This document shows positions 40,001-59,046 of a stretch of 64,000 nucleotides of DNA, piece by piece; the stretch's first letter is position 1; each line of letters opens with the position of its first letter. The notes under the pieces are model-generated. The model ran no database searches and had not been told where the DNA came from. It saw only the letters and a program-made list of their open reading frames with translations. The stretch is from Bacteriovoracaceae bacterium. GTDB taxonomy: Bacteria > Bdellovibrionota > Bacteriovoracia > Bacteriovoracales > Bacteriovoracaceae. The position numbers were made by a program, and so were the translations under genes. The stretch covers positions 1-64,000 of the forward strand of contig JBFGZE010000003.1 of assembly GCA_041586955.1 (NCBI GenBank), read 5' to 3'.

Positions 40001-40022
40001 ACAATGGCATCGATAGTTGCCA

Positions 40023-40508
40023 TTAATTTTTTTCTTGGGCATTTTCAAATAGTGGCAACATAATCAAGTCACCATCACCATGAACATCATTTATCTTCTC
40101 TGCCATTTTATAAAGAATATTGTTCTCTTTATCGATATGCTCCAATAATATTTGAGCATATTCATAAACATAAATTTTAAATTGCTCCCACGACTCTTCG
40201 TCACCGCCTTGGACTTTTTGTAGTGTTAAACTGGCCCTATCGACAATTTCCCGGCTCTTGTCGTGCTCTCCTAGCATACAGCGAAGAGGCCCATTTTCAA
40301 GATCCGGTTCTTTAGAGCGCATCCATAAGAAATAAATATCTTCTTCCTTAGCGTGATGATAATCATCAGCGTAACTTTTTAAAAAATGAAGAAAGGTCGT
40401 CCAATACTTCAAATCATGCCAATTTTCAGTGTCTAAAAAGCGCAGGGCATCGTTAATCGTATTGGAAATAACTTGATGCTCTTCTTTAAGAATTTCTGTC
40501 GCTTTCAT
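40023..40508 (-). CDS. Hemerythrin-like (HHE) domain protein
   Basis: EEH, HHAKEE, EH, HIDKEN di-iron-type ligands. Confidence 0.88.
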   Translation of the reverse strand: MKATEILKEEHQVISNTINDALRFLDTENWHDLKYWTTFLHFLKSYADDYHHAKEEDIYFLWMRSKEPDLENGPLRCMLGEHDKSREIVDRASLTLQKVQGGDEESWEQFKIYVYEYAQILLEHIDKENNILYKMAEKINDVHGDGDLIMLPLFENAQEKN

Positions 40509-40509
40509 A

Positions 40510-42279
40510 TCACTTCCTCTGAGAGTTTAAAACATAATCTAAGGAGAACTTGCCACTACCTGCCCAACTAAATGCCGCTAAACAAACCAACACTAATAAG
40601 GAGAATTGAAAGTCCTGGCCATGGGATAACATGCCATCCACCCCATGAATGAAAAATGTGGCACCAAATAGAACAGGAAGGTTCAATACGGCAAATGTCC
40701 GTGTGGCAAAACCTAGTAACAAGGAGATCCCTCCGGCAATATGTGCGAAAATCACGTACCAACTGGTGACATTTTGAAAATGCCCCATATGGCCAGTCAT
40801 ACTTTCAATCGTCTGCATATTGAGGATGAAATAGATTCCCTTAATCGCCAATGCCCCCCCTAAAAAGACTCGTAACATATCGAGGGGGTTAAAAGTGGTG
40901 AGAAAATCTGGAACAAGACGAGGTCTCCCTTCTTTACTGCCTTCGTAAGCTGCATCAATGGCAGCTTGCGTACGAACGGCTTCATCGTGAGCGAGTTTTG
41001 CGGCCTTCTCTTCAGCGGTCGAAAATGTAACAAAAAGAGCTGCAAAAGAAAATAAAAGGACTAATACTCCCAGGATAAGAAGTGCCTGTGGCCAGCTTAA
41101 CTCAGGGGAGCGAAAAAGAAAACCTGCTCCAACCGCTCCCATATTACCGCCAGCACCAACAATACCTGATACAGACCCAAGTGCTTTTTTATTAATAAAA
41201 GGAACAACGGAATAAGTCGCCCCCTCAGACATTTGCACGAAAAGCGAAAAGATCACCATGGTGCCGATCGCGACGGGGAGAACTTTAACTTGAGAAAATA
41301 TAATAAGAGCGAAACCTTCTACAACAAGGGCCATAAATAACCAGCGAACCCTTCCCTTAAGTCCCCATTTATGTCCAAACTTATCCCCAATAATTCCACC
41401 TGTGGTACGGGCAAAAATATTCATGAGTCCAAAAAGTCCGGCGACAAGACCAGCTGTTTTAACACCGAGTCCGAAGTAATCTTTATAATAAAGAGCGGCA
41501 ATATTATTGAGGGTCAATTCAATACCAAAGCTAGCCGCGTAAACCAGAAATAGCATCCAAACACGATGATCTTTACAGGCATCCATGAAGGAACCACCAT
41601 TTTTGGAAAGTTTCTTACGAGCAGCAGTAATGCCAAGATCCTTATAATTCCCATCTGGTAAATCAGTTGTTAAAAAATAATAAGCGACACCTGTAAGCAT
41701 ACAAACACCACCCGCCACAACCATGGATAATCGCCATGACCAAAAGGTGGAAACACCCCAACCAACAAAAGATGCAAAGACGATAGGCATCACCATTTGA
41801 GTAATGCCTCCACCAAGATTCCCCCACCCGGCGGAGGTCGCATTCGCCGTACCGACACAATTGGGAGCAAACATAACGGAAGTATGAAATTGCGTGATCA
41901 CAAATGCGGCACCGATGGCACCAATACCTAGCCGAAATAAAAGGAAGGTTTCATAAGAGTTAGCAAACCCAATTCCCATGACAGGTAATGACCCAAGCAT
42001 AAGTAACCAGGTATAACATAAACGCGGACCAATTTTATCACATAACCAGCCAATAAAGAGTCGGGCCAGGATGGTAATGGAAACCGACGCAATAATAGTG
42101 TTGCCAATTTGAGTTTTAGTTAAATGCAATTCGTCTCTAACAATCGCCATGAGAGGAGCAATACCAAACCAGGCGAAAAAACAAAGAAAGAAGGAAAACC
42201 AAGACATGTGAAAGGCACGCATCTGAGGTGTTGAAAAGTTAAAAAGATCAATTCTCGTTGCTTTGTTTTTAATTTCCAT
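40510..42279 (-). CDS. narK: NarK/NRT2-type nitrate MFS transporter fused to C-terminal DoxX domain
   Basis: MRAFHMSW, AGWGNLGGG, GAGGNMG; C-terminal MLRVFLG...LLLGFATR...GSGKFSLD. Confidence 0.88.
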   Translation of the reverse strand: MEIKNKATRIDLFNFSTPQMRAFHMSWFSFFLCFFAWFGIAPLMAIVRDELHLTKTQIGNTIIASVSITILARLFIGWLCDKIGPRLCYTWLLMLGSLPVMGIGFANSYETFLLFRLGIGAIGAAFVITQFHTSVMFAPNCVGTANATSAGWGNLGGGITQMVMPIVFASFVGWGVSTFWSWRLSMVVAGGVCMLTGVAYYFLTTDLPDGNYKDLGITAARKKLSKNGGSFMDACKDHRVWMLFLVYAASFGIELTLNNIAALYYKDYFGLGVKTAGLVAGLFGLMNIFARTTGGIIGDKFGHKWGLKGRVRWLFMALVVEGFALIIFSQVKVLPVAIGTMVIFSLFVQMSEGATYSVVPFINKKALGSVSGIVGAGGNMGAVGAGFLFRSPELSWPQALLILGVLVLLFSFAALFVTFSTAEEKAAKLAHDEAVRTQAAIDAAYEGSKEGRPRLVPDFLTTFNPLDMLRVFLGGALAIKGIYFILNMQTIESMTGHMGHFQNVTSWYVIFAHIAGGISLLLGFATRTFAVLNLPVLFGATFFIHGVDGMLSHGQDFQFSLLVLVCLAAFSWAGSGKFSLDYVLNSQRK

Positions 42280-42308
42280 AATGGCCTCGACTAACTCAAA
42301 AAATTAAA

Positions 42309-43907
42309 CTAAGGATTCTTATAATCTGCTTTTGGCCCTAAGTAATACCACCAATTGATTATGGCACAGAGGGCGTAAAATACAGCAAAACCATAAAGAG
42401 CATATTCAGGAGTTGTCGCCTTAATCTGCTCACCAAACACTTTAGGAATAATAAAGGCCCCATAAGCGGCCACAGCAGAAGTCCATCCCAGTACAGGTCC
42501 TCTCTGCTCTTCATTAAAAATCACAGCAATAGTCCTAAAGGTCGAACCATTACCAACACCGGTCGCTGTAAATAAAAGGAGAAATAATAAAAAGAAAGGC
42601 ATAAAGTAGACTTCCGGTGTTTCAGAAATATAAGCAGCATGCATATAATGAGCAACGCCAAGTGACGCCACGACCATAGTGATAGCACAAATTTGAGTAA
42701 CAAGAGCTCCACCAAACTTATCCGAAATCTTGCCACCAATAGGACGAATAAGAGCGCCAATAAATGGGGCCAACCAAGCATATGCTAAAGCTGAAGGCCC
42801 GTTGGGGTTGATGATAGAGTGATCAAACCCTCCTCCTGCAGTGGCAACATGCTTAAAACCAAAGATAACTTTAATCGCCAAAGGGAAGGCAGCAGAAAAA
42901 CCAATAAAAGAGCCGAAAGTCATGGTGTAGATGACAGTCATAACCCAGTTATGCTTATTGCCAAAAATCTTATATTGCCTGGTTAGTGATTCCTTTAATT
43001 GACCGGGTGAAAGAAACTTCATTAAATTGACGGTTAATGCAATAACTAGGGGCAAAACAATCCACTTAGAAACGCCCACCTTCAATAAAAGAACCAGTCC
43101 AATAATCGCGGAAACAAATCCTAAGAGTAATAGCCATGACATTTTAGCAATAGCGCCGGCGGTAGAGCCCAGGTCTGGTGAAACCACTTCATTTTTAATA
43201 TTATTCATTTTAAAAAATGCTAAAACGGAAGTCACAATTAAGATGGGGACCCATATAAAACCAGCATTATGAATAAAGGACATTTCACCTGCGGGAATTT
43301 TACCAATTAATGAACCACTTGGTTTGATAAGTTCCATTGGAACGCCACCAAATAGCCCAAAAGTCATCACTAAGGGAACTAAAATCTGCATCGTGGTCAC
43401 ACCAAAATTACCGAGTCCGGCATTGAGCCCGAGTGCCATTCCTTGAACTTTTTTTGGATAGAAGTAGGAAATATTACTCATGGAGGAGGCAAAGTTTCCG
43501 CCACCAATCCCCGATAAAAGGGCCAAGATCTGGAAAACCCATAAAGGAGTGTTTTGATCTTGAAGAGCAAGGCCGACCCCAAGAGCGGGTAAAATTAAAA
43601 GTGCCGAAGTAAAAAAGATAGTGTTCCGGCCACCACAGGGACGAATAAAAAAGGTGCTCGGGATACGAAGAGTGGCGCCAGTCAACCCAGCAATCGCCAT
43701 TAGCGAAAATAATTGCGCTTTTTCAAATGGGAAACCCACATTAAGCATTTGAACTGTAATAATGCTCCATTGCAGCCAAATGGCAAATCCACATAAAAGG
43801 TTGGGAATAGAAATCCATAAATTCCAATTCGCAATAGATTTACCTTTTGATTCCCAAAACTCAGGGTCTTCGACCCGCCAATCCGTTAAATCTCTATTAC
43901 CTGCCAT
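42309..43907 (-). CDS. narK: NarK2-type nitrate/nitrite antiporter
   Basis: EDPEFWE...NLWIS, GGGNFASSM, TFGSFIGFSAAFP, GVGNGSTFR. Confidence 0.93.
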   Translation of the reverse strand: MAGNRDLTDWRVEDPEFWESKGKSIANWNLWISIPNLLCGFAIWLQWSIITVQMLNVGFPFEKAQLFSLMAIAGLTGATLRIPSTFFIRPCGGRNTIFFTSALLILPALGVGLALQDQNTPLWVFQILALLSGIGGGNFASSMSNISYFYPKKVQGMALGLNAGLGNFGVTTMQILVPLVMTFGLFGGVPMELIKPSGSLIGKIPAGEMSFIHNAGFIWVPILIVTSVLAFFKMNNIKNEVVSPDLGSTAGAIAKMSWLLLLGFVSAIIGLVLLLKVGVSKWIVLPLVIALTVNLMKFLSPGQLKESLTRQYKIFGNKHNWVMTVIYTMTFGSFIGFSAAFPLAIKVIFGFKHVATAGGGFDHSIINPNGPSALAYAWLAPFIGALIRPIGGKISDKFGGALVTQICAITMVVASLGVAHYMHAAYISETPEVYFMPFFLLFLLLFTATGVGNGSTFRTIAVIFNEEQRGPVLGWTSAVAAYGAFIIPKVFGEQIKATTPEYALYGFAVFYALCAIINWWYYLGPKADYKNP

Positions 43908-43930
43908 AATATTTCCCCTCTTCTAATATT

Positions 43931-45124
43931 TTATTGGTGTAAATGTATTCCTTCTTTTAAGTAAGGGTCGTTCACGGCAACAAGCTTCACTCTTTTTAAA
44001 TCGCGCGCGATAAAAAGAGCAAAGAAACAACCAAATCCCACGGCCATCCCCACTTCAATTAGGCCAATCTGAGGATTAGTCACACCGGAATGGCCATAAA
44101 CATCTGGCGCAACCATCAGGTATAAATCAAGCCAACGACCAATAATCAGCAAAATACAAACACGCGATAAGATAAAGCGGCTGCGCTTAGCATCCCTTGT
44201 CATTAAGGCAAAGAATGGAATGATCCAATTGATGGCAAAATTAAAATAGAATAACCAATCCCAAGTATGTTTTTCTCGGGAGATATAATAAAGAGTTTCT
44301 TCTGGAATGTTTGAGTACCAAATGAGGAGATATTGGCTAAGCCAGATATAGGCCCAAAATGTAGTAAAAGCAAAAATAAACTTACCTAAGTCATGAAGAT
44401 TATGATCGCTAACTGCGCCCTTTAAATAACCTCTCCCTTGTAGCCAAATCACCATAAAAGTCACAGTGGCAAGGGCACTAATAAACATACCCGAAAAATT
44501 TTGGATACCATAAATAGTGCTATACCAATGGGGTTTTAAAGACATTAGCCAATCAAATGAAGCGAATGAATAAGTCAGTGCATAGGACACAAGAAAAATC
44601 GAGCTCCACTTGATGACTTGAGTGGTATGACTAGTCGAACCATCATCATCTTGTTTCTGTGAATAGTATTTGATCATTTTGCTGGTGACAATCCAAACGA
44701 CAAAAAAGATCACCATGCGAATCATAAAAAAGGGCGTATTAAGATAGGGCGTTTTAGAGCGTAGGATTTCATCCTTTAAAACCAGATCGTGATGAGTCCA
44801 TTCATAAAGAGAATGAAGTCCAAAGAAAAGTCCTAGCATCAGAATAAACCCAACTGGTAAAAATACTGTTAACGATTCTGACACTCTTTTAAACGGAGCT
44901 CCCCAAGCGGCATTTGAAACTGAGGCGATCGCTACAATAAGAGTTCCCCCTAAAGCGAGAGAAACAAAGTAAACAGAATTGACGAGATAGTTAATCCACA
45001 TCCTCTGTCCGTCGGTAATAATCCCCCAAACGGTACAGAGAACACCCAATAAAACACCGAATAAAAGAAGCCCTTGAGTCTTTGAGCTAAATTTAAATTC
45101 CTTTTGATTGATTTCCATTTTCAT
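43931..45124 (-). CDS. actF: Alternative complex III subunit F
   Basis: SLYEWTH, FDWLMSLKPHWYST, HDLGK, SQYLLIWYSNIPEET; position in act cluster. Confidence 0.88.
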   Translation of the reverse strand: MKMEINQKEFKFSSKTQGLLLFGVLLGVLCTVWGIITDGQRMWINYLVNSVYFVSLALGGTLIVAIASVSNAAWGAPFKRVSESLTVFLPVGFILMLGLFFGLHSLYEWTHHDLVLKDEILRSKTPYLNTPFFMIRMVIFFVVWIVTSKMIKYYSQKQDDDGSTSHTTQVIKWSSIFLVSYALTYSFASFDWLMSLKPHWYSTIYGIQNFSGMFISALATVTFMVIWLQGRGYLKGAVSDHNLHDLGKFIFAFTTFWAYIWLSQYLLIWYSNIPEETLYYISREKHTWDWLFYFNFAINWIIPFFALMTRDAKRSRFILSRVCILLIIGRWLDLYLMVAPDVYGHSGVTNPQIGLIEVGMAVGFGCFFALFIARDLKRVKLVAVNDPYLKEGIHLHQ

Positions 45125-45140
45125 TATCTCACTCTAGAAG

Positions 45141-45698
45141 TTATTTTTTCCTATAAGTTTCTTGAATATAATTCACATATTGCACAAGAAACCAACGGTC
45201 TTTAGAATTAATCTGCTCCTTATGAGATGGCATATCACCAGAACCTTCTGTAATAATGTGATATAAGCGACCATCTTCATACTTCAATAAGCGCTTCGCC
45301 GTTAATGAGGGAGGATTGGGAAATTTAGGTATTAAAGGGCCATCCCCTTTACCTTGGACCCCATGGCAGGCCAGGCAATAATTTGTATATAGAGACCGTC
45401 CTCTTTCCAGACCTTGCTTGGTTTCTGCAAAGGGATTGACCAATTCCTGACCTGCTCTTTTTGCTTCTGCCTCACCTTTCCCATAGGGAAAAGGAAGTTT
45501 ATTCCGAGCAATCGAGCCCTCTGGTGGTAATTGATTGGTTTTTCCATCGGCCATGATACTGTTTTCAGAATAGGCCTCATAACCTACGGAATGCACCATG
45601 TCGGGAAAAATCTCAATACCTGTTTCATCAGGATTACGACTACATCCGCTACTAATTAAAAGTAAGGTCACAATAATATAAATTCCAACTTTATCCAT
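45141..45698 (-). CDS. actE: Alternative complex III subunit E, monoheme lipoprotein cytochrome c
   Basis: Lipobox SSGC, PDM, CLACH, GDMP. Confidence 0.88.
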   Translation of the reverse strand: MDKVGIYIIVTLLLISSGCSRNPDETGIEIFPDMVHSVGYEAYSENSIMADGKTNQLPPEGSIARNKLPFPYGKGEAEAKRAGQELVNPFAETKQGLERGRSLYTNYCLACHGVQGKGDGPLIPKFPNPPSLTAKRLLKYEDGRLYHIITEGSGDMPSHKEQINSKDRWFLVQYVNYIQETYRKK

Positions 45699-46215
45699 GA
45701 TTCACAACCTCACTCGCGCCATGTTTTTTCATAATAGTGCTAACTTGATCGAAGTCGATGGCAGCGTTATTATGTTCAATGGCCAGAACAAAACTATAAT
45801 TGGTCATATTCGCATCTAAGATGGTTTCTTTTTTCCCTGGGAATAATCCACAACGATATAAGAAAAAGGCCACTGTAATAAGGGCACCCATCAATACTGT
45901 AATTTCGAACGCCACAGGTATAAAAGCGACAAAAGAATTAAATGGCTTACCACCAATATTCAAGGGCCAACTATATTTCGATGTCCAAACTTGGAAATAA
46001 ATGGCCACAAGGCAGCCAAATAGACAGGCGAAAAATGTAATAATTGGTAATCGCGAACGCTTAATTTCTAATAGCTCATCCAACCCATGCACAGGAAAGG
46101 GGGTATAGATGTCGAGAATCGGTATATTATAATCTCGCAAGCTTTTCCCGGCCTCGATCAAATGTTCCTCGTCTTCAAAAACGCCAAAAATTAATTTCCG
46201 GTTAGCATTTTTCAT
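45691..46215 (-). CDS. actD: Alternative complex III subunit D (DUF3341)
   Basis: [29 protein letters not shown]. Confidence 0.9.
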
Positions 46216-47578
46216 TTTTATTCCTTGCAAATTTCAATACTGTTTTAACCTCAGCTACGTTGATAGCTGGGAGAAAGCGGACAAAAAGTAAAAATAATGT
46301 AAAGAAAAGTCCAAAGCTTCCTATAAAAGTGATCACTTCAATTTTTGTTGGTGAATAACTCGCCCAGCTTGAGGGTAAATAATCCCGATGTAGTGAGGTG
46401 ACAATAATCACAAATCGCTCAAACCACATGCCAATATTAACAATAATGGAAAGGATAAAAACGGCTGCCACATTCGTTCTTATTTTTTTAAACCAAAAAA
46501 AGTGGGGAGAGATAACATTACAGGTTACCATAATCCAATAGGCCCAGCACATGGGCCCAGTCGCACGATTGATAAAAGCATATCTCTCATATTCATTACC
46601 TGAATACCAGGCGACAAAGAATTCTGTCATATAGGCCAGAGATACAAACATCCCAGTTAAAAGAACAATCTTGCACATCGCCTCAATATGGCCCATGGTA
46701 ATGTAATTTTCAAAATTCATCACCTTACGGGTAATGATCAATAAAGTTAATACCATTGCAAAGCCAGAAAAAACCGCACCTGCCACAAAATAGGGTGGCA
46801 AAATAGTAGTATGCCAGCCTGGTATAACCGAAGTCGCAAAGTCAAAAGAAACAATGGTATGAACTGAAACAACCAATGGAGTGGCCAACCCTGCTAAAAT
46901 AAGACATAGCATTTCATAACGATGCCAAGTTCGATGAGACCCGTTCCACCCAAAACTAAAGAAACGGTATATACTCTTTTTGATGCCAGTCTTTGCTCTA
47001 TCCCGCAAGGAAGCGAAGTCAGGAATCATCCCAACATACCAAAAGACCGCAGAAACAATAAAGTAGGTACTAATGGCAAAAACATCCCATAATAATGGTG
47101 ATCTAAAATTAACCCATAAGGTTCCCCGCATATTAGGATAGGGAAAAACCCAATGAGCAAGCCAAGGACGCCCCATATGGATAATAGGAAAAATACCGGC
47201 ACACATGACCGCAAAAATGGTCATCGCCTCTGCGGCACGGTTAACCGACGTTCTCCACTTTTGACGAAATAAAAGAAGAATGGCAGAGATCAAAGTACCT
47301 GCATGGCCAATACCAACCCAAAACACGAAATTGGTAATATCCCATGCCCAGCCGACGGTTTTATTAAGACCCCAAGTTCCTATGCCATAAATGATCTGAT
47401 AGGAAACAGCTGCGATTCCCATAACCAAGGCACAGATAGAAATTGAAAGACCAATATACCAAAGCTTACTTGGTGAGCCCTCAACAGACTTAAAAACATC
47501 GTCAGAAATCTCTTTATATGATCGAAACTTCGTTATAAGAGGATTTCTCAATTTTGAAGTATGCGTATCTGCAGACAT
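46202..47578 (-). CDS. actC: Alternative complex III subunit C (NrfD/PsrC family, quinol site)
   Basis: [44 protein letters not shown]. Confidence 0.95.
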
Positions 47579-47583
47579 ATATC

Positions 47584-50520
47584 CTACCCCTTATTCCTTA
47601 CTTTTGTGAGATAATTAACCCTCGGTTGAATATTTAATTCCTCGAGTAGTCGGTATTTTCTTGCATTTTTTAATAGGGTCGAGATTTTACTTTTTGGATC
47701 GTTTAAATTACCAAAAACAATCGCATCCCCAGGACAACTTTGCTGACAGGCCAATTGGATATCTCCGTCTTTAAGCGGGCGTTCCTCTTTTTTGGCGACA
47801 AGTTTTGACTCTTGAATACGTTGGATACACATCGAACATTTTTCCATAACCCCACGTGATCTCACTACGATGTCAGGATTGAGCACCATATTTTCGTATT
47901 TATCATCATGTGCATAATCAAACCAATTGAAGCGCCTTACTTTATAAGGACAATTATTGGCACAATAACGAGTCCCAACACAGCGATTATAGACCTGCTG
48001 ATTAAGTCCATCAGAACTCTGCACGGTGGCAATGACTGGACAGACAGTTTCGCAAGGAGCGTTATCACAATGCTGACACATAATGGGCTGATGAACGACT
48101 TCAGGATTTTCTTCATCACCTTTATAATAGCGGTCAATTCGTAACCAATGCATCTCACGACGACTATGAACTTCTTTCTTTCCAACAACTGGTACGTTAT
48201 TTTCAGCGTTACAAGAGATAATACAGCCCGAGCAACCGGTACATTTATTAAGATCTATGGCCATGCCCCATTGCTCACCACTTTGATCGTGCTTACCCCA
48301 CATCGAGACAAGCTTAATTGATGGTTTATTACCGGCATGGTTATCGACCTTCCATTCCTTTAATGTCGTTTCACGAACAATATCTCGTCCCTCCATTGAA
48401 TGATGGGTTTGAGTCAAGGCCATCTCCCTTTTTTCAGGGGTTATATCAACCTTAACGTCTGTCGCAATATTATTAAAAGAACCATTAGAAAATTGAACGA
48501 ATGGAAAGGCATTCCCACCAAGATTTTTGGCAACTTTCCCCGCCACGCTGCGACCGTACCCGTAGGCAACCCCAATCATATTTTCGCGTACTCCAGGCTG
48601 CACAATAATAGGAAGTACTAAGGTAACTTTATCTGTCGCAACCTTGATAACTTGACCTGTTTTTAAGTTTTGTTTTTTAGCGTCAATGGGACTAATAAGA
48701 AAGTAATTATCCCATGTCGCTTTGGTTATCGGGTCGGGTAATTCCTGTAACCAAGGATTATTGATCATATCCCCCGCGCGCATGCCTACCTTTTGGTAAC
48801 CAATTAAAGTCATGCCTTTATTTAGAGTTGCCTTCACAAGACGTGCATAGGAAAGGGCCACTACATTTTTTGCAAGATCTGATTTTTTGCTAAGTGAAGA
48901 ATTCATTAATGAGAGTCCGTCATGGACGGTATGATTCCAAAACTCATGAAACAACATTTTTTTTGTTTGCATTTTGAAGAATTTAATCTCTGCATTTTTC
49001 TTGAGAAAATCATAGTATTTAGTTGTTGAACCTGCCAATTTTAATAATGTCTCTTGCGCCATACGCGAACCAAACAATGGCTGAATAACAGGTTGAGAGT
49101 AAGTGAGAACATTAGGCGCTTGAAAATAATCATCCCATGACTCAAGAAAATGATTCATCGGCAACACATAATTACACAAGACTGAGGTTTCATCATCAGC
49201 GGAGGCAAACGAACATCTTGTCACAACTTTTTTCAATGCCTTAGTAAAACGTTGAGTGTCGCGATAATGATAGGCCAAATTCGTATCCCAAAAAAGAACC
49301 GCTCCTATTTCTCCCGCCTCCATTGTAGAAATCAAGTCTTCCGTTTCTTGATCTTTTGGCCCTTTAAAATAAGGATTCTCATAAAGATCAATCGTTTCAC
49401 CATAATTATCAAGAAGTGAATTCAAAGCATTAACCATGATTTGAATATCTTTATTTTGTGATCCGGAGAGAATGACGGACTTTCCTTTTTTCTCCCATAA
49501 CTCACCGGCAATTTGACTAACAAGCTCACGATTAGTACCAGGCAATTGTTGACCTGGAGGTAATAACGAGCGTCCGGCCTTTCGCTGTATCTCAGCGAGG
49601 AGATTTATGATAAAACTTTTTTCCTCCTCGGGCGTAACACTGAAGCGTTGATCAGCATTACTACCAGTAAGAGTCATTAATGATTCAAATTGGTAATGTT
49701 TAGATAAGGTATTATGAATTGTTAAATCCCTACGGGATGTATATTGTTTTGTGTACTCTACTGGAGAAAGCCATGTTCCTAAAAAGTCTGCGGAAAAACT
49801 GACAATGAGATCGGCCCGATCTAAAGAAATCGTTGGGTAAACGGCATTAGAAAAACATTCCTCGTTCGCCCTTAAAATGGCACTTTGAGAAGTTGGCTCA
49901 AATACCACATGATCGAAATTTGAATATTTCTCCTTCAGTTGCGCAATGATATCAAGAGTAGAAGGGCTAGAAATTGTTCTCGTGACTAGAACGATCTTTT
50001 TTTCCTTATCATTAGCATTATTTAAGGCCGCCTCAAGTTTCTTATCAATATTGGCCCATTCGATAGGTTTGCCATCTAATAGAGGACCTTTAAAACGTGA
50101 AGAATTATAGAGAGAGAGAACACTGGCCTGATCAGTCCCGAAAGTTCCTCCTTTAGTAATAGGAGAAAGACTATTCCCCTCAATCTTTATCGGTCTCCCC
50201 TCCCTTGTTTTGACTAATAAGGAGCTTCCCTTCATTGGATCCATGCTGGTGGCATACCAATTGGCGACACCAGGAGTCACCTGATCAGATTTATAAAGGT
50301 AGGGAATAGCTTTTTTGACAGGTATTCGCATACAGGAGGCGAGAGGTATCGCGGTAAAGGAAAATCCCATCACTTTTAAAAAGCTACGACGATCTTTTTT
50401 AATACTTCCGATATCAAATTGAAGTTCCCCTTCACCAAACTCAGATTTTAAGTGCTCAGGATCTAAAACTTTGTTTTCAACATCTTGCCAATAGGTAGTG
50501 TTATTTTTTTTCATTTTCAT
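47584..50520 (-). CDS. actB: Alternative complex III subunit B (Tat; molybdopterin-like fold plus Fe-S domain)
   Basis: DRRSFLK Tat motif, [24 protein letters not shown], four Cys clusters including [13 protein letters not shown]. Confidence 0.94.
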
Positions 50521-50542
50521 GGTCCCTATTCTTACTTAGCTC

Positions 50543-51091
50543 TTAATAATGGCATCTAGCACAATCTCCGCCGGCCCTACTTTTATGATCATCTGGCGCG
50601 GCAATATTATTTTGACGATGGCAATCTAAACACCAGCCCATATTAAGAGCATTTTCTTGCTTTAAGCGAGTCATCGTCTCTACCGGGCCATGACATTCTT
50701 GGCAGGAAATCTTACCCACCCGAACATGTTGACTATGATTAAAATAAGCAAAATCAGGAAAGTGATGAACTTTTTGCCATTCAATCTTTGCACCACCTGC
50801 AACCGCATCTTTAATCTTTTTAATTTCTGGCGAATCTTTTCTAATTTGATTGTGGCAATTTAAGCAAAGCTCTGTTGGTGGTATCCCAGCATGCCTCCCC
50901 TGCTCGGCGCCAAAATGGCAGTACAAACATTGAATTTGATTTTCACCAGCATGAATTTTATGAGAAAAATTAATTGGTTGCTGGGGTTCATAATCAACAT
51001 TAAAGTTCACCATTCGGGCTTCATAGGTAAAGGCGACAGAAACCCCAATGACAATCACCAAACATATTAAAAAGATAAGTTTATTTTTCAT
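50543..51091 (-). CDS. actA: Alternative complex III subunit A, pentaheme cytochrome c
   Basis: N-terminal TM, PQQPINFSHKIHAG, five CxxCH (CLYCH, CLNCH, CQECH, CLDCH, CARCH). Confidence 0.93.
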   Translation of the reverse strand: MKNKLIFLICLVIVIGVSVAFTYEARMVNFNVDYEPQQPINFSHKIHAGENQIQCLYCHFGAEQGRHAGIPPTELCLNCHNQIRKDSPEIKKIKDAVAGGAKIEWQKVHHFPDFAYFNHSQHVRVGKISCQECHGPVETMTRLKQENALNMGWCLDCHRQNNIAAPDDHKSRAGGDCARCHY

Positions 51092-51102
51092 ATTCCGGCC
51101 TA

Positions 51103-51792
51103 TTAAAATCTATTACGTTTCTGCTTTCTGTCATCATTCCAAATCACGACTTGCCATGAGCGCCAAATATAATGGATAGGAAGTACTAAAAAGTGTAATA
51201 AACGAGTAAATGGAAGTACTGCAATAATAAAAAAGGCATTTGCCATATGAAGTTTAACTGGCCATGGCATCGCCGAGACATACTGCATATCAGGGCTAAA
51301 GGAGAACAAGGACCTTAAATAAGGCACCATTGAAGTGGCATACCAATTAAATCCCCAACGATAATTAATCGCGGTCAAAACCCCTGTTAAAACTTGGACA
51401 AGAAGTAATAACAAGATAAAAATATCCATGCGGCTTGTGACGACCCGAACTCGTTTATTCTCAAATCTTCTTCGTATTAAGACAATGAGGCCAAAGAGTG
51501 CCATCAATCCAAAAATAAGAGAAAAGACTTCAATGACAAGGAGTCTCCAGGGGACACTACCAAATGCAATCATTTCGCGGGGAAATAAAAATCCTAAAAG
51601 GTGGCCTGTCAGAACGACGATGATACCATAATGCCAAGGAACTGATCCCCAAAATAAGTGGTCACTCTCTAGAAATTCAGAGGACAAGGAAGTAAACCTA
51701 TAGCTATTTGTAAAATACCTAGTTAGTGAAACCACCAGCATGACCGTCAAGGCGACGTAAGGAAAAATAACGAAGAGAAATAAATTTAACAT
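51103..51792 (-). CDS. narI: Nitrate reductase gamma subunit (diheme b)
   Basis: FPY, SSEFLE, WHYG/GH (H54, H64), KLH, PFTRLLH. Confidence 0.93.
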   Translation of the reverse strand: MLNLFLFVIFPYVALTVMLVVSLTRYFTNSYRFTSLSSEFLESDHLFWGSVPWHYGIIVVLTGHLLGFLFPREMIAFGSVPWRLLVIEVFSLIFGLMALFGLIVLIRRRFENKRVRVVTSRMDIFILLLLLVQVLTGVLTAINYRWGFNWYATSMVPYLRSLFSFSPDMQYVSAMPWPVKLHMANAFFIIAVLPFTRLLHFLVLPIHYIWRSWQVVIWNDDRKQKRNRF

Positions 51793-52331
51793 ACAGGTCC
51801 TCCAAAAATGGTTCGATCTATTGTATATTCCGTCTTAAACACAGATTCGATGGCCCTTAGGACATTCGAGTAAAAGTTATTAGCGGTTAGTTCATTTTGA
51901 AAATTTGACAGCATTTTCTCTAAGGCCGGTAAAAGAATCTTTTCAGATAATTCTTTTTTGTCGTCCTCATTGATTACTGACATTAATTTTAAAAAGTTAG
52001 TGAGGTGATCAGGAAGTTCAACTCCTGTTTCAACATTATTCTCTTTTTGTAGTCGCTGAATATTGACCAAAAACTCACCTCGTTTATAATCTTCTCCAAA
52101 AAGAACATAACCTATGTCTAAACAACACAGACCTTTAATATCAAAAGTTCGAGTGTAGATTTCCTCTAGTTCATCTAAGTCTTGCTTGTTGACATAATCC
52201 TCAAAGCCTAATAATAGCTTTGATGCCTCGGGATATTGATCTTTCATCTGATCAATTCCAGATTTTAGGGACGATTTGAAATCAGCACGTGGATAATCTG
52301 AAATCGTTGATAGGATTTGATAGGCGTCCAT
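51786..52331 (-). CDS. narJ: Nitrate reductase Mo-cofactor assembly chaperone
   Basis: YTRTFD, LFGEDYKRG, ELPDHL. Confidence 0.9.
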   Translation of the reverse strand: MDAYQILSTISDYPRADFKSSLKSGIDQMKDQYPEASKLLLGFEDYVNKQDLDELEEIYTRTFDIKGLCCLDIGYVLFGEDYKRGEFLVNIQRLQKENNVETGVELPDHLTNFLKLMSVINEDDKKELSEKILLPALEKMLSNFQNELTANNFYSNVLRAIESVFKTEYTIDRTIFGGPVC

Positions 52332-52333
52332 CG

Positions 52334-53824
52334 TTATTTCACCCTTTTTGGTTTCTCATTAAAACCAAATCCAGTTTCACCCTTATGCTCAAGAACCATT
52401 TTGGTCATTTCAATTGCTTCTTCACGATGGGAAGGAGGAATCACAAACCTTTCTTCAAATGTACATAGGGAAGACAATTTAAAGACATCATCTGCCATTT
52501 TAGCGGTCAGACCAGCTTCATTGAGAGAACCGACGGCATGCTCACCGGGCAAGTCCCCAACGGTCTCACTACGACGATGGATTCTTACGGCCATTAATTT
52601 TTTAAGGATATCTCGAACACGACCTTGGTCACCTGCAGAAAAGAGACTCGCCAAATACTTAATCGGTAAGCGACAATCGTCGATGCTGGTAAAATATGTT
52701 TGTTTGGCGTGATCATAAAGATTATCTGTCACATTACCCATAATTGGTAAAAGAGGTGGAACATAAAATAGCATGGGAACAGTTCTGTGTTCAGCGTGTA
52801 AAGGTAATGCCAATCCCCATTCTTTGACCCATTTATATACTGGTGACTTCTGTGCTGCTTCAATCATTGAATCAGCAATTCCATTCTTCTTACACTCTTT
52901 AATGACTTCAGGGTCAAAAGGATCGACGATGGCATCCATTTGGGCATCAATTAATTTATCTTCGTCCATATGAGCAATTTCTTTTATTTTGTCGGCGTCA
53001 TAAAGAAGAACACCTAAATAACGAATTCGTCCGACACACGAGTGAAAACATGCAGGTGCTTCACCAACTTCGAGACGAGGGAAGCAGAGAATACATTTCT
53101 CTGATTTACCGCTGGCCCAATTATAATATGTCTTTTTATAGGGACAAGCTGTAACGCACATTCTCCAAGCACGGCATTTTTCTTGGTTAATAAGAACAAC
53201 ACCATCCTCACCTCTTTTATAAATTGCTCCAGATGGGCAGCTGGCAAGGCAAGCAGGATTTAAACAATGATTACAAATACGGGGTAAATACATCATTACC
53301 AAACGTTCTAGCTTAAACATCTCTTCTTGCTCTTGTGCTGTTAGAGCAGAGAAATTTGGATCGTTTTTAGCGTAAATTTCAGAACCGCCTAAATCATCAT
53401 CCCAATTGGGGCCTGATTTGACCTCAATTTGCTCACCTGTAATAAGTGATATGGGACGGGCCGTTGGTTGATCATTTCCTTCTGGAGAATCGATTAAGTC
53501 TGAATAGGTATAAGTCCATGGTTCATAATAATCTTCAATGACAGGCAAATTAGGATTATGAAAAATATTTTTTAGTCCTCTAAATTTACCGGCACCTCGA
53601 AGGTTAACTTTACCACCCTCTTTTATCCAGCCACCCTTATAATCGTTTTGATCTTCCCAGCGATACGGATAACCCGTTCCAGGCTTTGTCTCAACGTTAT
53701 TCCACCACATGTACTCCGCGCCTTTGCGATCAGTCCAAAGGTTTTTACAAGCAATGGAACAGGTATGACATCCGATACATTTGTCGAGATGAAAAACCAT
53801 TGAAATTTGCGATTTAATATCCAT
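52334..53824 (-). CDS. narH: Nitrate reductase / nitrite oxidoreductase beta subunit
   Basis: LDKCIGCHTCSIACK, PRICNHCLNPAC, CRAWRMCVTACPY, KCILCFPR. Confidence 0.97.
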   Translation of the reverse strand: MDIKSQISMVFHLDKCIGCHTCSIACKNLWTDRKGAEYMWWNNVETKPGTGYPYRWEDQNDYKGGWIKEGGKVNLRGAGKFRGLKNIFHNPNLPVIEDYYEPWTYTYSDLIDSPEGNDQPTARPISLITGEQIEVKSGPNWDDDLGGSEIYAKNDPNFSALTAQEQEEMFKLERLVMMYLPRICNHCLNPACLASCPSGAIYKRGEDGVVLINQEKCRAWRMCVTACPYKKTYYNWASGKSEKCILCFPRLEVGEAPACFHSCVGRIRYLGVLLYDADKIKEIAHMDEDKLIDAQMDAIVDPFDPEVIKECKKNGIADSMIEAAQKSPVYKWVKEWGLALPLHAEHRTVPMLFYVPPLLPIMGNVTDNLYDHAKQTYFTSIDDCRLPIKYLASLFSAGDQGRVRDILKKLMAVRIHRRSETVGDLPGEHAVGSLNEAGLTAKMADDVFKLSSLCTFEERFVIPPSHREEAIEMTKMVLEHKGETGFGFNEKPKRVK

Positions 53825-53869
53825 AATTTATACCTTTCTATCCTCATTCCTTTATTTAACGACCAAATT

Positions 53870-56800
53870 TTACCAATCAACCTTATCTAATTTGCGGACC
53901 AAGATATGAGTATCTCTATTGACCCCAGTCGGCCCCCAATAATTAAAATGATAAGTAAATTGAGCATAACCGCCCATCATCAAATTCGGTTTCAAATGAA
54001 CTCTGGTAAGAGAGTTATTCATACCCGCTCGGCGATTTCCTCGACTAGGGGATTTTGGAGTCCCATAAGTCCTTTCCGTTGCGTGATAAACAATACAAAC
54101 ACCTGGCGGAATACGAGCACTCACGTTGGCCCGCGTGACAACAACACCATTATCATTAATGACTTCCACATAATCATTGTCTTTAATGTCTAATTTGGCC
54201 GCATCCTCAGGACTCATCCAAAATGGCTCTGCTCCCCTAGAAAGAGTCAACATGCGAAGAGTGTCACCATAGGTCGAGTGAATATGCCACTTCCCATGAG
54301 GAGTTAAATAATTGAGACGTAAACAATTTCCTTCAGGTTTAGTAACTCGAAGGTCTCCATAGGCTTCAGGGCTCGGCGATGGTTTATACGTTGGTAAATT
54401 CTCACCAAAGGAAATATAGCCTTCATGATCTAAATACAGACTTTGACGACCGGTTAACGTTCTCCAGGGAACCATACGATCGACATTATAAGTAAAGGCG
54501 GAATAAGTTCGACCATTTTCAATAATGCCCGACCAGATAGGACTTGAATGAAGCCTTTTTGGTGCCGCCTGAATGTCCTTAAAGTTCATTCTCACGCCTC
54601 TATTTTTTTCCGCGAGATCCTTTAATTTCAGTCCTGTTATTTTTTCCATCCCCTCGTAAGCACGGTAGGCCAACTCGCCATTAGTCTCTGAAGCAAAGGC
54701 CAAAATGGTATTACAAACATCATACCCATCTTCTAATGAGGGATAGGTATTGCCATCAAATTCATGAGTCGTTTGCGTTTTCATGCGCTCATCATACATA
54801 TCAGAGATATCGTATTTTACACCATGGGCCCCAATGCCGTTATTACGAGCGTTTGGACCAAATGAGCAAAATTTGTCATAAATCTTGGTATAATCTCTTT
54901 CCGTAACCACTAATTTATACATCGACTTACCAAGTTCGGGCTCACATTCACCCTTCGCCCAGTCTTTAATGCTCGGTTGAGATAATTCATCAATTGTATC
55001 GTGTTGCAATGGAACTGAGACGATGTCTTTAACAGGTCCTGTGAAGTGCTTTTTCGCAAGCTCTGAGGTAACTTTAGCAATACTTTTAAAGGTATCCCAA
55101 TCTGACTTTGACTCCCAAACAGGAGGGATGGCCTTGGCCAATGGGTGAATAAAAGTATGCATATCGGTGGTATTTAAATCAAATTTTTCATACCAAGAAG
55201 CCGCCGGTAAAACGATATCAGAATAAAGAGCACTAGTGTCCATTCTAAAATTGATATCGACAACTAAATCCATTTTTCCAGTAGGAGCTTCTTCATACCA
55301 CTTAATCTCTTTAACAGAGTCCTTGGCACATTCAGGAGCGATCTTATTGGTATGTGTTCCTAGATAATGATTAAGGAAATATTCGTGTCCCTTAGCTGAG
55401 GTGCCGATGGCATTTCCACGCCAAATATACCAAACTCTGGGAAAACTTTCTGGCGCATCAATATCCTCAATCGCCGGTGTAATTTTCTTATTAACGACCT
55501 TATCAAATACAAATTTCTTGATATCGTCATCTGTAGAAGCCCCCCCCTCTTGTGCCTCTTTACAAAGGTTAAGGGAGTTTTCTTTATACTGAGGATAAAA
55601 CGGAAGCCAACCATTTCTGACCGCCTTCGCATTAAGATCGGCCGTATGGCCTTTTGAAATAGGATCTTCTTCAGGAGACGCATTGATCTCATTATAATCA
55701 CCGTCATAACGCCATTGATCTGTATGCATATAATGCCAAGATGGCGCGTTTTGTAAACGAACCGGAGCTTGCCAATCTTTTGCAAAGGCAATCGCTCCCC
55801 ATGGTGCAGCTGGTGCTAGTTTTTCCTGACCAACATAATGGTTTAGGCCACCACCATTTTTTCCGACACAACCGCAAAGAATAAGAGCATTTTGAGCGGC
55901 CCGATAAATTAAATTATTATGGTACCAATGATCGATCCCTGCTCCGATGATGACGGAACATTTCCCTTCAGTGGAGGCCGCAGTATTGCCCCAATCTCTC
56001 GCAAAATTAATGACCGTTTCTTGACCAATTCCGGTGAAGCGCTCTTGCCACGCAGGAGTATAAGAAGCCGTTTCATCATTATAATCACTGGGGTAATCAC
56101 CAGCTAACCCTCTACCGACTCCGTATTGCGCCATTAATAAATCGTATACTGTTGTGACAGGAACTTTTTTTCCGTCATTCGTTTCGATATAGCGAACAGG
56201 AACACCTCGTTTATAATTATTGTCTAAACCAAACTCGGTAAATTCAACCTGCAATACTTCATCATGATTATTTAAAAGAGTTAAGCTGGGATTAATTGGA
56301 CTATCATCGAGAGTATCCTTTAACTCAAGGTTCCATTGCCCCTTTTTCTCTTGCCAGCGATGCCCCATGGTCCCCTTAGGCATTTTAAGTTCATTCGATT
56401 CCTCATCGAGAACAAGAAATTTCCAATCCCCATGTTCTTCTTGGGCATATTTATCGACTCTACCAGCTCTTAAAAAGCGCCCTGGCCTAAAACCACCATC
56501 CTTTTCGGTGACTTCTACTAAAAATGGGTTATCTGTATATTTCTTTTGGTAATCCATGAAATAGGGCGTTTGCTTTTCATGGTGAAATTCCTTCATAAGG
56601 ACATGAACAACAGACATCCAAAAAGCGCCATCTTGCCCAGCGTGAACAGGAACCCATTCATCACCAAACTTCGCTACCTGATTAAAGTCCGGAGAAAAAA
56701 CCGTCACCTTTGTGCCATTCATCTTCGCTTCAGGAATAAAATGGCAATCAGGTGTTCTAGTCATATTTAGATTGGCACCCATGATGGCAATCATCTTGGA

Positions 56801-57487
56801 ATTATACCAATCAGCAGATTCACCAACATCAGTTTGCTCACCCCATGTTTCAGGAGATGATGGAGGTAAATCGCAATACCAATCATAAAAAGATAAACAG
56901 ACACCACCCATCAATTGAAGAAATCGGGCACCTGAAGCATAACTAATTTGTGACATGGCAGGAATTGGAGAAAATCCTGTAATTCGATCCGGCCCATGAT
57001 TTTTTACGGTATAAATATTAGAAGCGGCAATCAATTCCAACATTTCATCCCAGGAGGCCCGTCTAAATCCTCCCTTACCACGCGCCTTTTGATAGCGCTT
57101 ACGAGCAGAGGGATTATCCTGAATCGATTTCCAAGCGTCGACAGGGTCTTTATGTTGCTTTTTGGCATCTCTCCATATATCGAGTAGAGCGCCTCTCACA
57201 TAGGGGTACTTAATACGAATTGGGCTATAGAGATACCAACTAAAGGAAATCCCTCTTTGACAGCCACGTGGTTCATACGGTGGAATTTCGGGGTTTATGA
57301 TGGGATAATCAACGGCCTGTAATTCCCAGGTGACAATTCCATCTTTTACGCAAACATTCCATGAACAACTACCCGTACAATTCACTCCGTGGGTAGAACG
57401 AACAATTTTATCATGTTGAAAGCGATTGCGGTAAAACTCTTCCCACAAACGTGCTTTTGGTGAAACAATATCGTCAATCCAACTCAT
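53870..57487 (-). CDS. narG: Nitrate reductase / nitrite oxidoreductase alpha subunit (no Tat signal)
   Basis: [52 protein letters not shown]. Confidence 0.97.
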
Positions 57488-57507
57488 ATATAGTCTCCTA
57501 GACTTTT

Positions 57508-58302
57508 TTAGTCTCGAAATGGTCTTCGTGTTTTTTTAATTCGGCCTTTCCATAAAAGATCAAAGGCACCCAGTACTAATAAGAACCCGATGATTCCCAA
57601 AAAGAAAAATTTCTTTTTGTGGCCGTTATCAACTTTTTTAGCGCGATCAACGCTCCATAAATAGGACTTGATTTGATAGGCCTCATCATCTGTCAGGGGG
57701 TTTTTCTTATAGAGACGAACCATTGTAGGAAAAGAAACGTTACGAATAACCTTCGATAGTCCTTTGTCATTATAGCTCGTATAAACATTTGTCAGATCTG
57801 GACCCAGTCCGCCGCCACCTAGCAATCCCGCTTCACCTGCACTATGGCAGGATAAGCAAGAAGGACCGCCATTTTTCAAGCGAGTCGCCCCAGTAAATAA
57901 ATTTTTACCTTGGTCAATTTCAAAGTCGTTGGCGCTGAGGGCCGATCTTAATTTTTCTACCGCGGACTTAACCTTACCACTATCAATATAGGCAATAAGC
58001 TCTTCCGCCTCGGAATCATCCAACTCTTGGTCAGGCATCTTCTTTCTTTTGTATTTCACGAATAATTCGTTAGCGATAGGATCACCCTCTTCAATCATAG
58101 ACTGGGATTCTTGAATAAAGCGGATAAGCCATTTCTTATCCCGTTTCTTTGAAACCCCCTTTAAGTCGGGTCCAACATCGTCACCTTGTCCAACGGTATG
58201 GCAACTCATACACTTCTGTTGAAAATAAGTGGCGGGTTCAAAAGCAAGTAAGGGCGTTAACCCTAGCAAACACAGTAAAATAAAAAGGAAACGATCCTTC
58301 AT
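57508..58302 (-). CDS. Membrane-anchored periplasmic diheme cytochrome c (NarC-like)
   Basis: Signal peptide, CMSCH...GPDL, CLSCH...GPDL, C-terminal TM; first gene of the operon. Confidence 0.85.
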
Positions 58303-58415: not shown

Positions 58416-58503
58416 TTGAATTTTTACGGCATCAATAAATCTTGTTGATACAATTCTATAGCTTTTTTTAGGGGAATTTATGAAAGAGGAGAGGACTAGA
58501 AGT

Positions 58504-58553
58504 AAAAAATGCCTTCTGCCCCCTCTACAAAAGGCTTTGAGGAAACAAAAGGC
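58504..58553 (-). terminator. Intrinsic terminator ending the feo operon
   Basis: Minus strand GCCTTTTGTTTCCTC / GAGGGGGCAGAAGGC stem (with G-U pairs) followed by T run. Confidence 0.6.
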
Positions 58554-58580: not shown

Positions 58581-58862
58581 TTATTTCTTCTTATTGATAA
58601 TGGTATTGGCCTTATCAAATTCTTTTTTCTCCAAAGACTGATATACATCATCCAGCATACTTTCATCGAAAGTTTTACCGTCCAAAAACTTAAGTGTTAC
58701 AATCGCCGATACCTCAAGGGACTTAAGTGCCGCCTTAACGATTTCTTCCTTCTCTGTGTCACTTTTCTTGTCATATGGAATAACTTCCTCAAGATTTTCT
58801 AAAGCGTAGTGGCTGATAACTGATAATAATTTACCTAGATTTTGATCACTTATTGTGTCCAT
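58581..58862 (-). CDS. Hypothetical protein (93 aa) in feo operon
   Basis: AGGAG RBS before MDTISDQ. Confidence 0.6.
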   Translation of the reverse strand: MDTISDQNLGKLLSVISHYALENLEEVIPYDKKSDTEKEEIVKAALKSLEVSAIVTLKFLDGKTFDESMLDDVYQSLEKKEFDKANTIINKKK

Positions 58863-58887
58863 TTTTTCTCCTATCTTCTCTATTGAA

Positions 58888-59046
58888 TTATTTTTTGATG
58901 CCGCAATGACACCCTCCACACTCTGTTTTGCTGCACGGATTGGCCAATTGATGTTTTCCTCTCTTTGGCACAAGCTTACTTGTTAATCCTCGCAGTATAT
59001 ATAAGGAAGCGATAAACAAAATTAAAAAAACAATCGCCTGCTCCAT
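58888..59046 (-). CDS. FeoB-associated Cys-rich membrane protein (52 aa)
   Basis: MEQAIVFLILF TM then CSKTECGGCHC; directly after feoB. Confidence 0.8.
   Translation of the reverse strand: MEQAIVFLILFIASLYILRGLTSKLVPKRGKHQLANPCSKTECGGCHCGIKK

Follow-up and report, generated by a model that had tools for sequence, protein, structure and literature searches.

Why would an operon for a membrane-bound nitrate reductase (Nar) also encode a complete alternative complex III (ACIII)? The question is raised by a 64,000-nucleotide (nt) stretch of a Bacteriovoracaceae genome (GenBank assembly GCA_041586955.1, contig JBFGZE010000003.1, positions 1 to 64,000 of the forward strand), referred to here in its entirety as the window, in which 14 consecutive minus-strand open reading frames (ORFs) run from 58302 to 40023 in the order dihaem cytochrome c-narG-narH-narJ-narI-actA-actB-actC-actD-actE-actF-narK-narK/DoxX-hemerythrin (Table 1). 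In the textbook scheme, NarGHI draws electrons straight from quinol and no complex III is needed, and ACIII tends to be discussed as a component of aerobic or phototrophic chains. The analysis described here indicates that the nar-act linkage is almost certainly a real, selected module, and it bears, with less certainty, on how the two complexes might work together.

The layout of the cluster is compact. Intergenic distances, in the 5' to 3' direction, are 20, 45, 2, -7, 11 (narI-actA), 22, 5, -29, -8, 16, 23, 29, and 1 nt, with a maximum gap of 45 nt and three overlaps (-7, -29, and -8 nt), and GC content is even across the cluster (0.39-0.43). Terminator-like hairpins are found only at the two ends and in none of the internal intergenic gaps; the presumed promoter region comprises about 200 nt, from the 5' hairpin down to 58303. 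The best explanation of the 14 genes is a single operon for a self-contained nitrate-respiring chain. These coordinates agree with a first-pass annotation of the window, which had described 14 co-oriented genes with no gap above 45 nt and 11 nt between narI and actA, and had placed the act genes inside the nitrate module, where they indeed sit between narI and the narK pair. Its statement that no oxygen reductase is present also holds for the 64-kb window, where COX1, COX2, COX3, and SCO gave zero tblastn matches and a Pfam scan of 58 ORFs found no oxidase family; likewise, none of the nir, nor, or nos families was found among the same 58 ORFs.

Table 1. Genes of the nar-act cluster, listed in transcription order, and the hairpins at its two ends
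Feature	Position in window	Strand	Basis
Dihaem cytochrome c, NarC-like by architecture	57508..58302	-	signal peptide, two CxxCH motifs, C-terminal membrane anchor
NarG, catalytic subunit	53870..57487	-	TIGR01580, 1509.5 bits vs cut-off 1084
NarH, iron-sulfur subunit	52334..53824	-	TIGR01660, 663 bits vs cut-off 524; PF14711
NarJ-like chaperone	51786..52331	-	weak match; position between narH and narI fits
NarI, dihaem b membrane subunit	51103..51792	-	TIGR00351, 128 bits vs cut-off 105.6
ActA, pentahaem cytochrome c, N-terminal membrane helix, short form	50543..51091	-	Pfam c7/c3 families
ActB, fused molybdopterin-like and Fe-S subunit, twin-arginine motif	47584..50520	-	6btm_B, 7.3e-185
ActC, NrfD-type quinol-binding membrane subunit	46202..47578	-	6btm_C, 1.8e-201; PF03916
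ActD	45691..46230	-	PF11821, 178 bits
ActE, monohaem cytochrome c	45141..45698	-	6btm_E, 3.1e-26
ActF, second NrfD-like membrane subunit	43931..45124	-	6f0k_F, 1.2e-66; no Pfam match
NarK-type nitrate/nitrite transporter	42309..43907	-	TIGR00886, 2.7e-80, 270 bits, just under cut-off 311.7
Second NarK-type transporter with C-terminal DoxX	40510..42279	-	TIGR00886, 2.5e-90, just under cut-off; PF07681 at residues 468-546
Hemerythrin-domain di-iron protein, last gene	40023..40508	-	PF01814, 66 bits
Terminator-like hairpin, 5' boundary	58511..58535	-	9-pair stem then T-run; ends upstream small ORF
Hairpin with T-run, likely 3' boundary	40003..40024	+	between operon end and convergent NifU-like gene

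The Nar and ACIII components are ordinary members of the NarGHI and ACIII families. The genes for the full set of six Act subunits follow one another from A to F; ActA carries five CxxCH motifs that are invariant in its alignment (A3) and, as read from the sequence, a hydrophobic N-terminus, and in ActB the RR-x-FL motif expected for export by the Tat system is invariant in alignment A1 and the Pfam and NCBIfam domain assignments agree. The best NCBIfam matches of ActA and ActB are to QrcA, QrcB, and QrcC, all of them below the cut-offs. With 46% full-length identity to its E. coli counterpart and no twin-arginine leader in its translation, NarG marks this NarGHI as the membrane-bound, cytoplasm-facing type. 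The NarJ-like protein scores below both applicable cut-offs (TIGR00684, 40.6 vs 59.35 bits; PF02613, 21 vs 22.2 bits), and the hemerythrin-domain protein resembles the YtfE/RIC repair protein only weakly (32 bits vs a cut-off of 254).

The first-pass annotation had suggested a neighbourhood search for act genes near narG, and such a search revealed that the arrangement recurs. In a comparison set holding one genome per species, the ActB alignment (A1) used as query returned 80 loci, each with up to 10 kb of flanking DNA per side (an earlier scan with a single ActB protein as query had found no relative), and the gene content of these loci was assigned by tblastn with the 14 window proteins and refined by ORF-level blastp. 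In 7 of the 80 ActB loci, narG, narH, narJ, and narI adjoin actA-F on the same strand; the hosts are a member of the Blastocatellia (L002), Terriglobales (L056), Thermoanaerobaculia (L035), and Solibacteraceae (L031), two Bacteroidota (L003 and L030), and an unclassified metagenome-assembled genome (MAG; L066). As in the window, narI leads directly into actA in L002, L035, and L056, with gaps of about 4-12 nt, and one or two narK genes lie between narI and actA in L003, L030, L031, and L066, the last of which also has a hemerythrin gene 3' of actF. COX2/COX1 directly follow actF in 43 of the 80 loci, as the first-pass contrast with ordinary ACIII loci would have it; since many of the loci are short contigs, both the nar-linked and the cox-linked fractions are lower bounds. 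No cox genes were found in the seven nar-linked loci, in the window, or in L004, a locus in a Candidatus Angelobacter MAG that is taken up below, and Pfam placed none of the 37 other flanking ORFs (>=110 aa) of the seven loci and L004 in the Nir, Nor, or Nos families, these ORFs encoding regulators, porins, and hydrolases. Because the nar-linked loci have no cox, Nir, Nor, or Nos partners, the conserved core is nar, act, and narK, a core that is not predicted by an ACIII role limited to feeding downstream reductases.

Closer relatives of the window point in the same direction. When result tables were compared by eye, 11 contigs (31612, 38739, 34701, 25058, 20993, 29966, 20976, 26781, 48788, 26482, and 14122 nt) appeared to carry both NarG and ActB, with a cytochrome c match also on 8 of them; the occurrence of both proteins on contigs of only 14-25 kb indirectly implies close linkage. 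The named relatives of NarG, ActB, and the cytochrome belong to MAGs of Halobacteriovoraceae, Bacteriovoracaceae, Bdellovibrionales, and Bdellovibrio, and identities among the matches listed reach 72% (ActB), 79% (cytochrome), and 89% (NarG). For NarG, the closest of the named relatives among the matches listed are from Halobacteriovoraceae (83%), Bacteriovoracaceae (77%), and Bdellovibrionales (71%), all of them MAGs.

These results bear directly on the possibility that nar and act are adjacent by accident, either through chimeric assembly at the narI/actA junction, which the first-pass annotation had named as a finding that would undo its proposal, or through a recent fortuitous insertion without shared function. 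The even GC content, the occurrence of the same narI/actA junction in L002, L035, and L056, the 11 contigs of closer relatives, and a natural family of fusion proteins that spans the junction (described below) all speak against such an accident. The conservation of the nar-act module across phyla answers the worry about a chimeric assembly, and accidental adjacency, which retains a negligible probability, is effectively refuted by the conserved synteny.

The nar-linked ACIIIs also fall together in phylogenetic trees. In an ActC tree of 73 rows, comprising the window and the 72 of 80 loci that passed a 75% coverage filter, the nar label requires 2 changes (0 of 500 shuffles were as low), and the nar-linked rows lie together in the centre of the tree, apart from the cox-linked ACIIIs of the same phyla: the nar-linked Solibacteraceae locus L031 is apart from the cox-linked L054, and the nar-linked Bacteroidota are likewise separate. 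In an ActB tree (70 rows, simpler model), the nar label again takes 2 changes (0 of 500 shuffles were as low), and starred (strongly supported) branches force 1. When the window was constrained to one clade with the seven loci and L045 (closely related to L056, with its upstream DNA truncated), a grouping named after the tree had been seen, the constraint was not rejected by the approximately unbiased (AU) test (p-AU 0.574) and the constrained tree was 2.84 log-likelihood units better than the free tree, which weakly supports one origin of the nar-linked group. All of the trees are quick searches with partly weak resolution, and a NarH tree (9 rows) and an ActC subtree (12 rows), compared for co-inheritance, contain no starred branches. 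From the conserved synteny together with the ActC and ActB trees, the nar-linked ACIII therefore seems to be a lineage of its own, passed from phylum to phylum in one module with the nar genes, and not the oxidase-serving kind.

Further ties between the two complexes are provided by fusion proteins, which were found by a sensitive search with NarI followed by Pfam scanning of the longer representatives. In P0428, NarI is followed by a hydrophobic membrane helix and then by multihaem cytochrome c7/c3 (ActA-like) domains, with residues 238-362 being 53% identical to the window's ActA (2e-53). A single fusion over an 11-nt gap could be a sequencing artefact, but the existence of a 53-member cluster in the ESM Atlas, commonest in Acidobacteriota and with the NarI and cytochrome c7 families each present in 100% of members, argues otherwise. 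Because the C-terminus of NarI is cytoplasmic in the E. coli structure, the order NarI, helix, and periplasmic haem domain fits the topology that such a protein would be expected to adopt. In P0368 and P0371, a cytochrome c domain precedes NarI, the domain of P0368 being 36% identical to domain 1 of the window's leading cytochrome. A C-terminal Rieske [2Fe-2S] domain is joined to NarI in five 50%-identity representatives (P0372, P0385, P0392, P0403, and P0421), and the NarI-Rieske cluster in the ESM Atlas numbers 58 members, commonest in Candidatus Hydrogenedentota, which suggests that Nar has also been tied to Rieske-type complexes. Altogether, the NarI-containing fusions are the strongest indication that NarI and the haem subunit of ACIII may work side by side. 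In two runs of complex prediction, NarI (alignment A4) with ActA (A3) received a score of 0.00, the mark being 0.32, and this result was not used either way. By eye, Rieske-like Cys/His motifs are also visible in P0389 and P0480. In P0380 (644 aa), NarI is followed by an MFS transporter, and fusions between membrane parts of the module (NarK-DoxX and NarI-MFS) seem common.

The 264-aa cytochrome c that leads the operon is connected to ACIII by descent as well as by position. Its cytochrome domain 1 matches the SCO1-fused cytochrome c of PDB 2l4d_A (2e-18) and residues 59-148 of 6btm_A, subunit A of the Flavobacterium johnsoniae ACIII (3.6e-10); the latter segment is the extra N-terminal cytochrome c domain of the long Bacteroidota ActA (433 aa in L008), which the window's short ActA does not have. 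Domain 1 and this additional domain of F. johnsoniae ActA are thus homologues. Cytochrome-c-like matches upstream of actA in Bacteroidota were considered as NarC genes and rejected, as they are this same N-terminal domain of the long ActA. Homologues of the dihaem cytochrome lie 5' of narG in L002, L056, and L060; among the nar-linked loci, the DNA upstream of narG is visible in L002 and L056, the other five ending inside or at narG (10-kb limit). In L060 (Candidatus Hinthialibacteria OLB16), cytochrome-narG-narH occupies 855-5470 on the minus strand, and an ACIII with SCO, COX2, and COX1 occupies 9318-20857 on the plus strand.

Two sets of loci present the cytochrome in other company. Five relative contigs (137799, 42143, 118567, 175664, and 25781 nt) appear to have ActB and cytochrome matches and no NarG among the 120 NarG matches listed; the dihaem cytochrome may thus also accompany this type of ACIII without NarGH, as in L004, or, alternatively, the NarG of those five contigs lies outside the matches listed. 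In L004 (3618-12639), an anchorless dihaem cytochrome c overlaps the start of a NarI-like gene, which is followed 4 nt later by actABCDEF, with no narG, narH, narJ, or cox genes in the locus. Because this NarI-like protein keeps His at the columns of E. coli H66 and H187 and has Gln and Thr at those of H56 and H205, it could bind the outer haem only. L004 is either a decayed nar-act remnant left after the loss of narGHJ or an independent cytochrome c/NarI accessory to ACIII, and, as it may be a decayed remnant, it was set aside as a clue to mechanism.

The nearest known layout is that of Thermus thermophilus narCGHJIKT, in which, as in the window, a membrane-bound periplasmic dihaem cytochrome c comes first, followed by narGHJI and two NarK-type transporters; in contrast to the window, with its six act genes between narI and narK, the Thermus operon has no ACIII in it or near it. 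The likeness of the window's cytochrome to Thermus NarC is one of architecture and gene order. In passages of one published account, Thermus NarC is described as binding NarI, exchanging electrons with it, and being needed for Nar maturation, and as able to pass electrons to nitrite and nitric oxide reductases, thereby replacing complex III (PMC7694296). That a NarC-type cytochrome binds NarI is indirectly hinted at by the cytochrome c-NarI fusions P0368 and P0371.

A related precedent, the Nitrobacter-type nitrite oxidoreductase (Nxr), raises the prospect that the module runs backwards. Here, NarG would oxidise nitrite, electrons would leave NarI through the dihaem cytochrome c for an oxidase, and ACIII, driven in reverse by the proton motive force, would reduce quinone. 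Passages of the same account place a cytochrome c gene with the narGHJI-like genes of Nitrobacter, have the NarI homologue exchange electrons with periplasmic cytochrome c, and describe the nxr cluster, with its periplasmic NarC homologue, as very similar to the Thermus narC operon (PMC7694296). The connection between cytochrome c and NarI would fit outward electron flow, and some relatives carry the label "nitrate reductase / nitrite oxidoreductase alpha subunit", a generic designation. The Nitrobacter-type enzyme, however, works in the oxidative direction in autotrophs that possess oxidases, whereas no oxidase gene occurs in the window or in any nar-linked locus and the ORFs scanned in the window included no carbon-fixation genes. 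NarG lies far above the narG equivalog cut-off, the two NarK transporters and the hemerythrin-domain gene fit nitrate reduction, and the hosts named for relatives are MAGs of Bdellovibrionota, Acidobacteriota, and Bacteroidota, which are not known nitrite oxidisers. A reverse-running module is therefore quite improbable, and of the "Nar/Nxr" label in the first-pass annotation, the Nar half is upheld by NarG, NarH, and NarI, all above their equivalog cut-offs, while the Nxr half has found no specific support.

The gene content, the operon structure, the conservation, and the existence of the fusions are matters of observation, and the reading favoured here is that Nar is wired to ACIII. The module would then consist of a NarC-type Nar (the anchored dihaem cytochrome c with NarGHJI), a dedicated ActABCDEF, two transporters, and a hemerythrin-domain protein. 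Nar and ACIII would be joined at NarI, with the membrane helix of ActA beside NarI and the dihaem cytochrome docked on its periplasmic face. Quinol would be oxidised at ActC, and electrons would pass through the Fe-S clusters of ActB to the haems of ActA, ActE, and cytochrome c, enter NarI at its outer haem b, and cross the membrane to NarH and then NarG for the reduction of nitrate. Nar would thus act as the terminal reductase of ACIII, any energy that ACIII conserves would be added to Nar's own charge separation, and direct quinol oxidation at NarI would be retained as a second point of electron entry.

Serial flow of this kind is favoured because the module links act with nar and in no case with nir, nor, nos, or cox; because about 8 kb of act genes are kept in a module that moves between phyla; because NarI-ActA, cytochrome c-NarI, and NarI-Rieske fusions exist; and because the cytochrome at the head of the operon shares ancestry with the output domain of ACIII itself. 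From this evidence we infer physical contact in this organism, the direction of electron flow, and any gain in proton yield, and the components of the reading differ in strength. A physical association between Nar and ACIII is fairly probable; serial flow from ACIII to Nar as the main function stands slightly below an even prospect; and it is only tentatively suggested that Nar forms a fixed supercomplex with a quinol-oxidising complex and serves as its terminal reductase, the NarI-ActA and NarI-Rieske lineages included, with a yield of more than 2 H+ per 2 e-. The first-pass annotation had likewise proposed a dedicated ACIII-Nar chain or supercomplex: the selected coupling implied by that proposal is borne out by synteny across phyla, a coherent tree group, and the NarI-ActA fusions, while its electron path and supercomplex are putative, and the quinol site of NarI looks intact.

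This apparently intact site is the first of several points that weigh against serial flow. In the alignment, NarI keeps His at all four haem-ligand columns (E. coli H56, H66, H187, and H205), and Arg occupies the column of E. coli K86, a quinol-site residue, in the window as well as in each of the 8 other nar-act NarI sequences. Because the four His residues and a basic residue at the K86 column are kept, direct oxidation of quinol by NarI probably remains available. Arg is the commonest residue at that column (73 of 113 rows of a wider NarI alignment), and this residue was accordingly rejected as a discriminator of serial from parallel flow. Energetically, serial flow pays only if ACIII conserves energy, and proton pumping by ACIII, on which the benefit depends, has been proposed but is unproven; moreover, redox chemistry leaves little driving force for electrons that pass from c-type haems to the outer haem b of NarI and across the membrane. 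The precedents in Thermus and Nitrobacter run in the opposite direction, from NarI to cytochrome c, and, in passages of the account cited above, the NarC-type Nar of Thermus works without any complex III (PMC7694296). The fusion proteins are from other organisms, and narI and actA are separate genes in the window. In L060, the cytochrome-narG unit is divergent from the cox-linked ACIII and about 4 kb away, so that the two are neighbours and not one operon. The matching of NarG and ActB contigs in closer relatives is indirect, and the clade put to the AU test was chosen with the tree in view. Finally, no convincing box of the FNR/CRP type was found in the promoter region, the sole match in a search allowing <=2 mismatches (58445-58458) having 2 mismatches, against a total of 101 matches in the whole window.

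Much of this would sit comfortably with two co-regulated branches working in parallel. NarI would oxidise quinol directly, ACIII would serve as an anaerobic quinol:cytochrome c oxidoreductase feeding Nir/Nor/Nos or a cbb3 oxidase encoded elsewhere, possibly by way of the dihaem cytochrome, and any contact between Nar and ACIII would only bring carriers together. Such an arrangement would agree with the intact haem ligands and basic Q-site residue of NarI, with the established role of ACIII in reducing periplasmic carriers, and with the limited driving force available to electrons passing from c-type haems to Nar. In 43 of 80 loci the ACIII operon is tied to oxidase genes, so that a separately regulated copy for anoxic conditions would be a simple rationale for the present operon, in which the hemerythrin-domain gene would fit nitrosative stress from further nitrite reduction. 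Passages on Thermus, where NarC hands electrons outward to Nir and Nor and Nar has no need of a complex III, could be read in the same way (PMC7694296). Parallel branches nevertheless leave unexplained why the linkage should be to nar, the one N-oxide reductase that does not need a complex III, when no nir, nor, or nos gene is linked to it in the window or among the 37 flanking ORFs of the eight loci. The 53-member NarI-ActA fusion family is hard to explain by co-regulation alone, and retention of about 8 kb of act genes in different phyla would be surprising in a mobile module if only unlinked enzymes benefited. Parallel operation is the chief rival, albeit a doubtful one, and the wiring of Nar to ACIII remains the preferred reading.

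Comparison with other known systems helps to define what is new. In ACIII-aa3/caa3 operons, and in the F. johnsoniae ACIII-aa3 supercomplex (PDB 6BTM), six Act subunits stand beside a terminal reductase as they do in the window; in contrast, the window's ACIII neighbours a cytoplasm-facing Nar with its own quinol-oxidising subunit, has no SCO/cox genes and a short ActA, and belongs to a separate tree group. ActA, ActB, and ActC have homologues in QrcABCD, the menaquinone reductase of sulfate reducers, but Qrc is without ActD, ActE, and ActF and reduces quinone with electrons from low-potential cytochrome c3, whereas the window has the full ACIII set. A Rieske/cytochrome b-pNar cluster of haloarchaea, as presented in passages of one report, encodes a complex-III-type quinol oxidase together with Nar and is thought to serve nitrate respiration, but it pairs Rieske/cytochrome b with an outward-facing NarGH without NarI, where the window pairs ACIII with an inward-facing NarGHI (PMC3509893). 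No Rieske or cytochrome b domain was found by Pfam in the window operon. This haloarchaeal module and the Thermus narCGHJIKT layout are precedents that the first-pass annotation had overlooked (PMC3509893; PMC7694296). Its remark that the arrangement is not known to have been characterised has fared better: a full-text literature search, with subscription-only ACIII reviews outside its reach, returned no description of an ACIII inside a nar operon, of a nar-linked ACIII lineage, or of NarI-ActA or NarI-Rieske fusions, and a passage of one survey has ActB known only from aerobic respiration (PMC10100899).

The surroundings of the operon offer a few further observations. In the promoter region, an inverted repeat, ATCAA-N9-TTGAT, lies at 58431-58449, about 130 nt 5' of the start codon of the cytochrome gene, and is not a standard FNR box. 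In L002, genes for Rrf2-family and PAS-LuxR regulators lie just upstream of the cytochrome gene. Upstream of the window's operon, at 58581-61488 on the minus strand, are feoA, feoB, a small ORF for a Cys-rich membrane protein, and a small ORF without a family match, after which this group ends at the hairpin; passages on the Thermus nar cluster report that it contains a decayed iron-transporter gene (PMC7694296). A gene for an outer-membrane porin of the Alginate_exp family follows nar-act-narK in two different phyla, in L002 (18022-19545) and L030 (16735-18045), and may serve nitrate/nitrite. The rest of the window contains housekeeping genes, feoAB, a partial nuo operon, and genes of the pilus or secretin type, and Rfam and tRNA scans of the window gave no matches.

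The conserved, cross-phylum nar-act module and the NarI-ActA fusions point to an anaerobic role for ACIII and to a supercomplex for nitrate respiration that may conserve more energy. If this is true, the return on nitrate respiration would exceed the textbook 2 H+ per 2 e-, and electrons would enter NarI from periplasmic haems or from a Rieske centre, instead of or besides quinol. The nar-act module would then allow proton pumping by ACIII to be measured in an anaerobic system, making an open question of energy conservation testable. The NarI-Rieske fusions represent a parallel case that deserves a study of its own. For the organisms themselves, the operon suggests that relatives of Bdellovibrio-like bacteria can respire nitrate; lineages of the Bdellovibrionota type are generally regarded as aerobic predators, and a full respiratory nitrate reductase in such a lineage would be notable.

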